DNA from: Staphylococcus phage RQ1
Strand: one strand, 5' to 3'
Sequence record: PV344601.1
Length of the DNA: 64,000 bases
The notes under the pieces were generated by a model. That model was not told the origin of the DNA. It saw only the letters and a program-made list of their open reading frames with translations, and did no database searches. Shown piece after piece: positions 52,915 to 54,130 of the stretch (positions are counted from its first letter, which is position 1; each line of letters opens with the position of its first letter). The position numbers were made by a program, and so were the translations under genes.

Positions 52915-54130
52915 TTTTCTTACAAAAAAACAGGGGGATACCCCCTAATCCCTACTCTCCCAAGGGTTTTAGCCGTTATATTGTACCCCGCCTATTTAAT
53001 TTTAGACCCCCCGACCCTCTTAATTATATTGTACGCTACCTATCCGTCTTAGATGGATTGTATAAAACAATGTTGTACACAACCTAATTACATGTAAAAA
53101 AATAACATTGTACACAACACACATCAATACAATACAGTTGTACACAATGCTTATGCATAACCTATTCAACCTACTTGCTCCCAACTGCCACAATCCACAC
53201 ACACGAACGCATATATACCTAACGCATGCAATAGCCTTATAGGTATTAGGTGTTAAGGTATAAGGTGTTAAGGTTATATATACATATGAACATACATGAT
53301 ACATACATCATACATACATCTAACAACTAACAAAGAAGATAAACAACTAACTAACTAACAACATCATTGATAACTAATACATAACTAATACATAACTAAT
53401 ACATTACATAACTAATCATTGATATACTTAATAGATATATATATAACTATCATTGATACAATACAATCATACACATTCAATACATATCATTCATGTACTA
53501 ATCACATACACAACACATACACATACAACATCATAGATACATATATCAATCATATACATACATACTATATACACCATTGATACATACATACACAGTACAT
53601 ACATATACACACACATTCATACTGTACACATACACATACAACAGACGCACACACAGACACATGAGCATACACACATGATACATCATACATACATCTATAT
53701 ACTTATACTATATCAATGTAATAGATACACACATACAAGATATAACATCATTGATACATGTATATACACATACACCAACACATACACATATAAGACTATA
53801 CACATGCATACATACATCTATACAGTACACACACATACACATACATGCTATGTACCTATACACATATACCATATGCATGCCCTTATCCCTATAGCCTACA
53901 GTACACACATATACATGCATACTATGTACACCCTTATATATGCATAGCATTATATATGCCATGTAGTATATGCCACTACCTTATATAGCACTACCTTATA
54001 TATAGACCCTTGTATACACCCATGCTATACGCACGCCACCTATATGCTACCCACTGTATTATATACCCTTATTATATAACTACCCTTTATATACGCCACT
54101 GTTATATATACTACCTTACATACTACACAC
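52915..54130. repeat. G-depleted (plus strand) low-complexity zone of degenerate CATA/ACAT, CATTGATAC and ACTACCTTATATA repeats
   Basis: Direct inspection: plus strand about 4% G. No credible ORF. Confidence 0.85.
52981..53148 (+). repeat. array of the TTGTACACAA motif: three perfect copies at 53075, 53109, 53139 plus degenerate ATTGTAC copies
   Basis: Direct inspection. Confidence 0.8.

Follow-up and report, generated by a model that had tools for sequence, protein, structure and literature searches.

A non-coding, purine/pyrimidine-alternating zone beside the cos site of a Staphylococcus phage as a possible cis-acting chromosome-end element

INTRODUCTION

What can a stretch of about 1.4 kb do in a phage genome if it carries no gene and is poor in G on one strand? 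This question is raised by Staphylococcus phage RQ1 (PV344601.1), from which a window of 64,000 nucleotides was analyzed. An initial annotation had placed the stretch between an early gene block and a leftward gene cluster, and had proposed a packaging or terminal-repeat-proximal region, a protein-binding array, an RNA with unusual composition, or a recombination hotspot. Literature searches found no paper describing the zone. Judging from genus match and synteny, the window phage is a Sextaecvirus, that is, a 6ec/SEP9-like Staphylococcus siphovirus. It encodes its own helicase, primase and polymerase, as well as a P27-family small terminase subunit (TerS) with an adjacent HNH endonuclease.

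RESULTS

The zone lies beside the cohesive-end site

The non-coding character and the setting of the zone were borne out. An ORF-free zone of about 1.4 kb, poor in G on the plus strand, separates the rightward block, which ends at about 52914, from the leftward cluster, whose last ORF (54361–54591) lies to the right of the zone. The extent of 1.2 kb given at first (52915–54130) describes a real zone but stops too early on the right; the natural limits are 52915–54360, and the right-hand third (54130–54360) is included.

Phage 6ec has a 10-nt 3ʹ cohesive end that was determined experimentally (PMC4125762), and cohesive ends have been reported in the literature for these phages (PMC4125762, PMC6507118). 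The window contains an equivalent of cosN, AGGGGCGCTT, at 52885–52894, which is the homologue of the 6ec 3ʹ overhang GGGGGCGCTT (the published AAGCGCCCCC read on the other strand); 9 of the 10 nucleotides are identical and the flanks are conserved. The 10-mer was found in six phages, with one copy each at the syntenic place. The opening point of the 6ec record falls exactly at the cos homologue, and at least eight independent assemblies besides 6ec end within 1 nt of the cos cut. By homology, 52885–52894 is a cohesive-end cleavage site, and the zone, which starts about 30 nt from it, directly adjoins cos; given this homologue, the zone would be the first ~1.45 kb of the virion DNA molecule. 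No direct terminal repeat was found: all complete records examined carry the zone in a single copy per genome. Together with the reported cohesive ends, this single-copy state indicates that the ends are cohesive and not terminal repeats. The suggestion of a packaging or terminal-repeat-proximal region was in this way supported in substance, with cohesive ends in place of terminal repeats.

The signals on both sides of cos were then assigned. A sigma-A-type promoter of near-consensus sequence (TTGACA-17-TATACT with TG; 52732–52760, plus strand) would fire toward cos, and its 6ec counterpart (TTGACA-17-TATAAT) stands at the same place. Downstream of this promoter, a short ORF (52790–52914) spans the cos cut; its product showed no conservation between clades. 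The terminator of the rightward block, T1, a hairpin with a T-run (52825–52851, plus strand), is located about 34 nt before the cos cut and is kept in SA2, PT1-4, SEP9 and 6ec. From the right, cos is faced by T2, a strong intrinsic terminator (GGGGGTATCCCCC followed by a T7 run; 52931–52947, minus strand) that is conserved in all relatives compared. A further intrinsic terminator (54328–54354, minus strand), also conserved in relatives, closes the leftward small-gene cluster and forms the right border of the zone. Two convergent sigma-A-driven early operons end at these terminators, which flank cos on both sides and close off the zone at its far border. The sequence from 52825 to 53085 is nearly invariant within the clade of the window phage.

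Purine/pyrimidine alternation is the exceptional property

The plus strand of 52915–54130 is composed of 39.1% A, 24.4% C, 8.1% G and 28.3% T. The reported scarcity of G (about 4%) was confirmed in kind, but the value holds only for the core: G lies at 2.5–5% only in 53273–53900, with 5.1% in 53290–53900 and 2.5% in the poorest 200 nt. The view that strand asymmetry makes the zone atypical was overstated, since the adjoining coding DNA is equally depleted in C. Counted in intervals of 1216 nt, C is below 8.1% at 2072 window positions, with a minimum of 6.9% near 48962, and the GC skew is −0.50 in the zone versus +0.51 in the early coding block.

What is exceptional is the alternation of purines and pyrimidines, which is 0.71 over 52915–54130 and peaks at 0.86 in intervals of 200 nt; the mean for the window is 0.477 (sd 0.058). 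The fraction of YR steps is 0.427 in the zone versus 0.239 (sd 0.026) in the window, and of the 12 longest alternating runs in the 64 kb, 11 fall within the zone.

The zone is an ordered series of repeat modules

Head-to-tail arrays of short units, as in micro- and minisatellites, make up the zone. TRF detected degenerate arrays with 62–63% matches, namely ACAT with a period of 4 (45 copies, 63% matches) and CACATA (27.7 copies), and two perfect repeats, the 11-nt tandem repeat ATAACTAATAC (3.2 copies, 100% matches) and CACTACCTTATATAG (1.9 copies, 100% matches). The degenerate CATA/ACAT units noticed at the outset are thus real. Exact counts of the motifs gave three copies of CATTGATAC, five of CATTGATA and two of ACTACCTTATATA, the last with variants in addition.

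Next to T2 lies a C-rich conserved block (52950–53060) with two TTATATTGTAC repeats 49 nt apart, which is nearly invariant in the window, SA2 and PT1-4. It is a candidate for cos accessory (terminase-binding) sites; alternatively, a G-rich minus-strand RNA of ~90 nt that ends at T2 may have its body here. Three near-palindromic, DnaA-box-like TTGTACACAA sites with a spacing of 30–35 nt follow at 53062–53147. Then come five (T/A)AGGT units with a period of 7–8 nt, ending in TATAAGGT...TATATA (53240–53282, plus strand). This patch is the only G-containing one of the zone interior, and the array stands 314–362 nt from T2 in all eight Sextaecvirus regions; its TAAGGT units are complementary to ACCTTATATA units about 700 nt downstream.

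The (YA)n core, a degenerate ACAT/CACATA satellite, extends from 53290 to 53960 with 5% G and an alternation of about 0.78. Three exact ATCATTGATA palindromes are located at 53363–53458, the ATAACTAATAC tandem lying between the first two, and more copies are found at 53573 (one mismatch) and 53747 (exact); all four exact copies in the 64 kb lie within the zone. In most relatives, CTAATACA and CATTGAT-type motifs occur 425–650 nt from T2. The last module (53870–54200, plus strand) is an array phased at ~15 nt, in which a C-rich part of 5–7 nt is followed by T(T)ATATA, and autocorrelation peaks at lags of 14–16 and 29–30. The spacings of these C-rich/TATATA units are near multiples of ~15 nt (13–15, 27–35, 44–47 and ~60) in 9 of the 10 regions listed, and the phased units stand ~1000–1190 nt from T2 in eight aligned Sextaecvirus regions.

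A cis-acting element of the chromosome end is the preferred reading

Palindromes and phasing at 11 nt and ~15 nt are signs of an architecture for protein binding on duplex DNA, and the repeats keep their positions in relatives; the proposal of a protein-binding array is plausible to this extent, with the binding itself putative. Our preferred reading, which we hold tentatively and at somewhat less than even odds, is that the zone works in cis, at the DNA level, as an element of the chromosome end beside cos and serves in packaging and/or DNA entry. The first ~250 nt (the C-rich blocks, TTATATTGTAC and TTGTACACAA) would hold recognition sites for terminase/HNH and sites for an early regulator. 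The remainder would be a scaffold of short direct repeats containing only A, C and T and unusually rich in flexible pyrimidine-purine steps; G would be scarce because asymmetric units were amplified all in one orientation. The motif arrays of the scaffold (TAAGGT, CTAATACA, ATCATTGAT and CCTTATATA) would bind proteins on double-stranded DNA, and the inverted TATAAGGT and ACCTTATA arrays, ~700 bp apart, might be brought together and loop the flexible core. Such a module would take effect when cos is recognized and cut during packaging and/or when that end enters the cell, and would encode neither a protein nor a structured RNA.

Several observations fit this reading less well. Strand asymmetry is more natural for a transcript or single-stranded DNA than for duplex sites, and the conserved minus-strand terminator beside cos implies leftward transcription inside the zone. 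The terS gene is ~7 kb distant from cos and the zone, unlike in lambda and HK97, where cosB abuts terS. In addition, the high divergence of the zone, described below, would also be expected from relaxed constraint, and PT1-4 tolerates additional DNA in it.

The zone shows few marks of a gene or a transcript

When the six-frame ORFs of eight phages were compared all-against-all, none was conserved in frame. Translated similarities fell on both strands and in several frames, with frame changes between phages, and no ORF was common to the two clades; the ORFs that gene callers placed in the zone in the PT1-4, BE22 and S-CoN_Ph11 records are spurious.

A transcribed element, which we consider unlikely, would be either a C-rich, G-poor, unstructured and untranslated plus-strand RNA or a set of short minus-strand RNAs ending at the cos-side terminator. 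The plus-strand RNA might be a Rho-loading or insulator zone against read-through from the cos-side promoter, or a sponge RNA closed by UAAGGU-ACCUUA pairing. Avoidance of G on one strand is what a constraint at the RNA level would lead one to expect, and the C/G ratio is about 3–5 across 1.3 kb. The minus-strand terminators at both borders bracket the zone. For the plus-strand RNA, prediction gave almost no structure (−107 kcal/mol for 911 nt), and the feature that persisted most was a long-range helix formed by the TAAGGT array with the ACCTTATATA units.

Most phages have promoter-like sites directed into the left part of the zone or out of it, but their position and strand differ between clades, and those of the window are weak. 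No promoter in the zone was position-conserved across clades, none reached 10/12 or more on the plus strand of the window, and sigma-70-type promoter-like sites were not enriched (32 found versus 31 expected). Rfam gave no matches at gathering score in the whole window, sub-threshold matches being only to TG/TA-repeat microRNA models, and the tRNA search found none. The RNA folds were not more stable than shuffles (z = +1.37, −1.16 and +0.31), and compensatory pairs were not found. For the small G-rich RNA ending at the cos-side terminator, with z = +0.3 and no covariation, we keep only the possibility. The Rho primary site prefers YC dinucleotides, whereas C in the zone occurs mostly as AC/CA, which argues against Rho loading. 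The idea of an RNA with unusual composition thus found no Rfam family, cross-clade promoter or fold beyond shuffles in its favor.

DnaA-box-like sites and the case for a replication origin

A second array, made up of TTATACACA, TTTTACACA and TTGTACACA at a spacing of 30–36 nt (59233–59313, minus strand), is inverted relative to 53073–53147 and lies on the far side of the leftward cluster, in the early regulatory region. The three TTGTACACA sites in the zone are one mismatch from TTWTNCACA, and the inverted array has two perfect DnaA-box matches at 59233–59277; the zone sites and these boxes account for 6 of the 12 relaxed DnaA-box matches in the 64 kb. The one-mismatch form is present in the window, PT1-4 and SA2, and perfect boxes are found only in the 59.2-kb array. 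The zones of SEP9, 6ec and F1 lack DnaA-box-like sites, and the S. epidermidis clade has a different repeated element instead.

If the zone were a replication origin, which we regard as quite unlikely, an initiator (DnaA of the host or one encoded by the phage) would be recruited to the iterons and DnaA-box-like sites, and the easily distorted (YA)n tract would be where the duplex is unwound or the phage helicase-primase enters. In favor of an origin, the zone is large and non-coding, carries direct repeats and palindromes as well as iterons phased at 11 nt, and has repeated candidate binding sites in phase (the 11-nt tandem, four ATCATTGATA and three TTGTACACAA). Further points in favor are the DnaA-box-like sites in the zone and at 59233–59277, the helicase, primase and polymerase genes of the phage, and the Enterococcus Denvervirus 9183, in which the equivalent zone is immediately upstream of the replication genes. 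However, an adjacent initiator gene is absent, and the S. epidermidis clade does without the DnaA-box-like sites. As for an unwinding element, the nearest-neighbor duplex stability of the tract is no outlier (65–88th percentile at 1 kb); among 300-nt stretches, stability is lowest at 52205 and 9785, and the zone comes only fourth, at 53274.

The layout is kept among relatives while the sequence turns over

The comparison of length across related phages, which had been called for as a check, gave 1344–1398 nt in seven of eight phages with the layout kept; the zone of PT1-4 measures 1.72 kb, with an extra ~350 nt. The composition was similar in all eight (A 39–44, C 19–24, G 7.7–9.6 and T 27–32%), with an alternation of 0.70–0.72. 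Measured from the cos-side terminator, the positions of the best-defined modules are conserved within roughly 10–50 nt between clades whose TerS proteins are only 65% identical. The M. sciuri phage F1, a divergent Sextaecvirus, has the same layout, and a similar G-poor stretch in Denvervirus 9183 shares some motifs with the zone. Length, composition, alternation, and module order and spacing are kept across Sextaecvirus, while the intervening sequence turns over fast. The zone diverges about 5–10 times as much as its flanks (5.4% substitutions versus 0–0.9%, with many indels), and the 6ec–SEP9 alignment is saturated in the tract, the flank differing by 2.7%. This divergence, several-fold above the flanks, is also the only and indirect hint of the recombination hotspot that had been suggested. 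A/G transitions occur between close relatives, yet the avoidance of G is maintained.

A search of IMG/VR with the cos pattern gave only three Sextaecvirus contigs, and the tract was present in all three; a search of IMG/VR with the TerS protein as query gave nothing useful. Geobacillus phage GR1 was set aside, as its non-coding stretch is G-poor but the alternation is absent.

The fast turnover could also be that of a functionless spacer, that is, satellite-like DNA made by replication slippage between two operons and cos, of which only ~150 nt by cos and the terminators would be functional. The degenerate tandem arrays, the indels and the saturation of the 6ec–SEP9 alignment are in line with such DNA, and several assemblies break within the zone, as expected for low complexity. 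This explanation is nonetheless improbable in our estimate: the length is held in a narrow range, ordered modules keep their positions within tens of nucleotides in clades that are otherwise saturated, F1 and Denvervirus 9183 share the layout or some motifs, and G is avoided in spite of the A/G transitions.

The zone seems to be absent from some close relatives with records of 86–89 kb. These records end at cos or 90–207 nt into the zone and restart ~7 kb further on, and the junction in S-CoN_Ph5 lacks cos altogether, so it cannot be real genome structure. Such points are contig ends, not deletion junctions, and the records are thus uninformative on whether the tract is dispensable.

An orphan tyrosine recombinase has been described in this phage family (PMC6507118). 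An invertible segment, flanked by the inverted TTGTRYACAA arrays (53.1–59.3 kb), was rejected, as at least nine records with the segment all have it in the same orientation.

The weakest explanation, which we consider very unlikely, is a T5-like DNA-entry control region, in which the terminal ~6–7 kb with host-takeover genes would be delivered in steps under the control of the zone and its partner repeats: the zone and the inverted TTGTRYACAA array flank the terminal leftward cluster, whose genes have 80–87% DNA identity to genes in the terminal-repeat region of Herelleviridae and which makes up ~7% of the genome together with the zone, and the order of the T5 repeats is conserved among relatives, with DnaA boxes in inverted repeats flanking the pre-early genes near the chromosome end (bioRxiv 10.1101/866236), but two-step transfer is unreported for these phages, the DnaA-box-like motif is limited to one clade, and the repeat zone is outermost here and innermost in T5.

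DISCUSSION

Taking the zone as a cis-acting element of the chromosome end, we may ask how far it reaches beyond this phage. A more speculative extension, for which the chances are low, is that it represents an unrecognized class of chromosome-end module in large cos siphoviruses of Firmicutes (Sextaecvirus and, more weakly, Denvervirus), in which a mechanically special (YA)n scaffold would carry phased protein-binding arrays, each at a set distance from cos, and, jointly with an inverted partner array past the terminal host-takeover-like cluster, would control the handling of the end (for example, staged entry as at the T5 injection stop signal, or termination of packaging). The recurrent loss of precisely the terminal segment from assemblies, and PhageTerm calls that disagree, might then stem from a true physical peculiarity of the virion DNA, for instance a nick or another discontinuity ~7 kb from the end.

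If functional, the zone would make it feasible to study, in a Gram-positive system, a large cis-acting element at the end of a phage chromosome. To our knowledge, such elements are poorly understood even in T5, whose injection stop region has withstood decades of study. Sextaecviruses are currently isolated with a view to therapy, and many genomes deposited as "complete" (86–89 kb) stop at the zone; once the repeat arm next to cos is recognized, genomes of the genus could be better assembled and annotated and their ends better determined.

Compared with known systems, the tract resembles CA/TG and TA microsatellites with Z-DNA potential in its alternation and in its degenerate units with periods of 2, 4 and 6 nt. 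It differs in that its longest perfect runs are only 15–24 nt and rich in TA steps, TA-rich runs of this length being poor Z-formers, and in that it lies between convergent operons with specific motifs embedded at fixed positions. With iteron-type replication origins of phages and plasmids, such as the 'Per' origins of lactococcal phages, it shares non-coding DNA, phased direct repeats and palindromes, but it has no duplex-instability outlier, adjacent initiator gene or genus-wide DnaA boxes.

The left end of T7 has a gene-free first ~1 kb with short repeat arrays, followed by early promoters for host RNA polymerase. The gene-free first ~1 kb with short repeat arrays is the point of likeness; T7 has direct terminal repeats and not cos, and strong inward promoters in its leader, whereas the zone has no conserved promoter. 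The untranslated repeat regions and injection stop signal of T5 (bioRxiv 10.1101/866236) are likewise kilobase-sized, non-coding and near the chromosome end, beside small early genes of host-takeover type. They too contain direct and inverted repeats and palindromes in an order that is kept among relatives while neighboring genes vary, and DnaA-box-like sites in inverted arrays; by these features, the zone would count as a large T5-type repeat region near the end. T5 differs in having long terminal repeats and a region ~9–11 kb in from the end, with no sequence similarity to the zone and no (YA)n tract.

The lambda/HK97-type cos (cosQ-cosN-cosB) is matched by the 10-nt cut site, the conserved non-coding repeats beside it, and the P27-family TerS with adjacent HNH. 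Known cos accessory regions are ~100–200 bp long and abut terS, as in lambda and HK97; here, a non-coding arm of 1.45 kb lies ~7 kb from terS and consists mostly of an alternating (YA)n satellite with phased motif arrays.

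Results

By megablast and blastn, the window belongs to the genus Sextaecvirus, Staphylococcus siphoviruses of ~89–97 kb with very long tails (types 6ec and SEP9). The nearest records, SA2 and PT1-4, were ~83–84% identical across roughly half of a 19-kb comparison. The zone is the gap separating convergent gene blocks: rightward small genes stop at ~52914, and the last ORF of the leftward cluster of small minus-strand genes lies at 54361–54591. An unannotated gap was found at the syntenic position also in SA2, SEP9, 6ec, BE22, CF9, and BE02. Short gene calls occupying the gap in the PT1-4, BE22, and S-CoN_Ph11 records were judged spurious by a coding test. 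A protein gene was rejected, as similarities between phages fell on both strands and in several frames, and the frame changed from phage to phage; the absence of a credible ORF, as initially annotated, was confirmed by the lack of frame-consistent similarity among the phages compared. Elsewhere, the gene adjoining terS (43843–45024, minus strand) carries in relatives the annotation of an RNA-binding protein containing a von Willebrand factor A-like domain, and Sextaecvirus also encodes a large RNA ligase.

The G-poverty reported in the initial annotation was real, but the G figure given there was too low: over 52915–54130 the composition was 8.1% G, 39.1% A, 24.4% C, and 28.3% T, with G at 5.1% in the core (53290–53900) and 2.5% in the poorest 200 nt. 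The asymmetry had also been called extreme and atypical, which overstated it, since C fell below 8.1% in many 1216-nt windows of the adjoining coding block (minimum 6.9%), and the GC skew was −0.50 in the zone versus +0.51 in that block. The true outlier property of the zone is purine/pyrimidine alternation, which was 0.71 over 52915–54130 and reached 0.86 in 200-nt stretches against a window mean of 0.477 (sd 0.058); the pyrimidine-purine step fraction was 0.427 versus 0.239 (sd 0.026), and 11 of the 12 longest alternating runs of the 64 kb fell within the zone. The interior consisted, according to TRF, of degenerate ACAT/CACATA arrays and a few perfect short tandem repeats. The repeated motifs described initially were present, at counts somewhat below those claimed (CATTGATA, five; CATTGATAC, three; ACTACCTTATATA, two), while the palindrome ATCATTGATA had four exact copies in the zone and none elsewhere in the 64 kb. 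The simplest explanation for the G-poverty is that it arose as a by-product when short units made only of A, C, and T were amplified in a single orientation.

Two other sites were observed near the far end of the leftward cluster. Its 5ʹ leader (58790–58860) is CA-rich and G-poor on the RNA-like strand (CAACGCAACAAACACACAACGAAATACAAACC...) and resembles the zone in composition, yet is clearly transcribed. No alternating run of the 64 kb is longer than the perfect, GC-rich one of 39 nt at 59009–59047 (CGCACGCATGCACGTACACACGTACGCGCGCGTATATG), a textbook Z-DNA-prone sequence in the window, itself ~31% GC. This run sits in a non-coding early regulatory region and is missing from the equivalent 6ec sequence.

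In the genome announcement of 6ec, reads were used to determine the physical ends, which carry a 3ʹ overhang of 10 nt, AAGCGCCCCC (PMC4125762), and a comparative study gave the same ends for the entire cluster, SA2 included (PMC6507118). Read in the orientation of the window, the record of 6ec closes with ...gagcgaagg and restarts with GGGGGCGCTTgtctttt; the window reads AGGGGCGCTTGTCTTTT at 52885. The 10-mer of this cohesive-end site (cos; cut site 52885–52894) was unique and occupied the syntenic position also in SA2, PT1-4, SEP9, BE22, and BE02, and at least eight independent assemblies terminated within 1 base of the cut. CF9 lacked ~22 nt at the cut, including the cos 10-mer (L009, ~1650–1680), a gap typical of a join at a physical end. 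Because the 6ec end maps to 52885–52894, the zone starts ~30 nt from the cut and makes up the opening ~1.45 kb of the virion chromosome. The initial suggestion of a packaging or terminal-repeat-proximal region was in substance supported; the zone is not a terminal repeat.

On the left of cos, a near-consensus sigma-A promoter (52732–52760; TTGACA-17-TATACT with TG) points toward cos at a distance of only ~125 nt from the end of the chromosome; 6ec carries TTGACA-17-TATAAT at the equivalent place. The promoter drives a short ORF (52732–52914 for the two together), whose ribosome-binding site is strong and which runs across the cut and is therefore intact in circular or concatemeric DNA only. 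Its peptide was not conserved between the window clade (window, SA2, and PT1-4) and the S. epidermidis clade (including 6ec and SEP9), and in PT1-4 it stops ahead of cos. A hairpin with a T-run, T1, lies at 52825–52851, and a strong minus-strand terminator, T2, lies right of the cut at 52947–52931; another GGGGG...CCCCC hairpin after an A-run (AAAACAGGGGGTAATAACCCCCT; 63954–63975) resembles the latter. A second minus-strand terminator (54354–54328) closes the leftward cluster. Between the two minus-strand terminators follow, in order, C-rich blocks with two TTATATTGTAC repeats; three TTGTACACAA sites spaced 30–35 nt apart; five (T/A)AGGT units repeating every 7–8 nt, the sole G-bearing patch of the interior; ATCATTGATA palindromes with an 11-nt perfect tandem repeat; a (YA)n core; and an array phased at ~15 nt, each unit a C-rich part followed by TTATATA. 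A TTATAT-type element occurs beside the cut, at ~347 nt, and also within the distal array, and TATAAGGT on one side faces ACCTTATA ~700 bp off as an inverted pair.

Following the initial suggestion to compare lengths across related phages, we found inter-terminator distances of 1344–1398 nt in seven of eight phages and ~1724 nt in PT1-4, with near-identical composition and alternation in all eight. Measured from T2, C-rich blocks lay at 13–91 nt, TTGTAYA sites at 103–212 nt, the (A/T)AGGT array at 314–362 nt, CTAATACA and CATTGAT-type motifs at ~425–650 nt, a nearly G-free stretch at ~500–700 nt, and TTATATA units at ~1000–1190 nt, distances conserved in both clades, between which TerS identity is 65%. 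This layout was shared by the divergent phage F1 of M. sciuri (TerS 49% identical). In Denvervirus, Enterococcus phage 9183 (TerS 35% identical) had a shorter G-poor stretch ahead of its replication genes, with CATTGAT and CCTTATATA motifs behind a GC-rich patch, and Geobacillus phage GR1 a non-coding G-poor stretch without alternation. The sequence itself changed fast. Within the window clade, 260 nt around cos were almost invariant and similarity fell off beyond; in the S. epidermidis clade, the tract was 70–86% identical versus 96–100% for the flanks. Between 6ec and BE02, the tract had 5.4% substitutions and 14 indels (flank, 0.9% and none); between BE02 and BE22, 60 substitutions and 15 indels (flank, 0 of 560 sites); and between 6ec and SEP9 it was saturated (flank, 2.7%).

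At least 16 records of 86–89 kb stopped at cos or 90–207 nt inside the zone and resumed at the equivalent of 6ec ~6917–7054 (L006). S-CoN_Ph12 (L018) stopped mid-tract, and S-CoN_Ph5 (L037, ~1510–1525) had a join without cos altogether. Many such Sextaecvirus genomes deposited as "complete" are without both the zone and the ~5-kb cluster beside it, among them S-CoN_Ph1 (L004/L005), Ph16 (L016/L017), and PG-2021_46 (L014/L015). Unrelated coding sequence stood beyond the cos cut in S-CoN_Ph9 (L012/L013). The breaks in these records are ends of contigs or artificial joins and do not represent junctions left by a deletion. As contig ends, the short records are no proof that the zone is dispensable, and its apparent absence from close relatives, considered at the outset as an argument against it, would find its explanation there. 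Assemblers most likely fail in low-complexity DNA at the chromosome end, and these phages may also truly be without the ~5-kb cassette. Published PhageTerm calls for the group conflict, with cos, pac, short DTR, and long DTR all reported (PMC8629997).

Discussion

Length, composition, and module spacing are conserved while the sequence between turns over fast, which points to a cis-acting element read as DNA architecture. The palindromes, like the phasing at 11 nt and ~15 nt, suggest binding of proteins to duplex DNA, and the TATAAGGT/ACCTTATA pair, ~700 bp apart, could conceivably allow looping of the flexible core. We tentatively favour a chromosome-end module that would serve to recognise or cut cos and/or to bring this end of the DNA into the cell, a role whose functional steps we infer throughout.

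A transcribed element, acting as a Rho-loading or insulator zone or giving short RNAs, seems unlikely. Almost no structure is predicted for the plus-strand RNA (−107 kcal/mol for 911 nt, z = +1.4), and on the minus strand the fold was no better than shuffles (z = −1.2). Promoter-like sites showed no enrichment and varied in position between clades. The RNA of unusual composition proposed initially is not a known or structured one: no Rfam family reached its gathering score in the whole window, which also yielded no Y-RNA-like or other known RNA, and sub-threshold matches were only to microRNA models based on TG/TA repeats. Neither covariation nor stability supported a possible G-rich RNA of ~90 nt from the minus strand that would end at T2. 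No tRNA was found in the window; relatives have a tRNA-Pro. We consider an origin of replication distinctly improbable, as the duplex stability of the tract is unremarkable and marks no obvious unwinding element. A neutral satellite spacer, to which the degenerate repeats and fast turnover might be ascribed, is quite improbable alongside the conserved length and module spacing.

The leftward cluster (54361–58863, minus strand) holds several small genes 80–87% identical in DNA to Herelleviridae (Kayvirus/Twort-like) genes that sit near genome ends or inside an annotated terminal repeat; neighbouring genes are annotated as TreN- or TreP-like in related records, and PHROGs returned only families of unknown function for the cluster. 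It looks like a horizontally acquired cassette of host-takeover type and may have been inserted into an older non-coding leader; it has been termed an insertion also in PMC6507118. Two inverted arrays of three TTGTACACAA-type sites (53073–53147, plus strand; 59233–59313, minus strand; spacing 30–36 nt in both) bracket the zone and this cluster. They are DnaA-box-like, with perfect TTWTNCACA matches at 59233 and 59269. The S. epidermidis clade is without this motif and repeats a different element (ATTGTATAAAAA...) at both corresponding places; in 6ec these copies bear the annotation PHIRE elements.

In phage T5, an untranslated region of 1.66 kb contains repeats and palindromes whose order is kept among relatives, and DnaA boxes lie in inverted repeats flanking its pre-early genes near the chromosome end (bioRxiv 10.1101/866236). 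Both T5 and the window pair a repeat region with DnaA-box-like inverted arrays around early-type genes near a chromosome end. Since the S. epidermidis clade is without the motif, the parallel is a lead rather than membership, and a T5-like region controlling DNA entry is very improbable. The papers found and consulted contain no description of the zone; it is best placed among the known non-coding repeat regions of phage chromosome ends, in an unusual form conserved across the genus.
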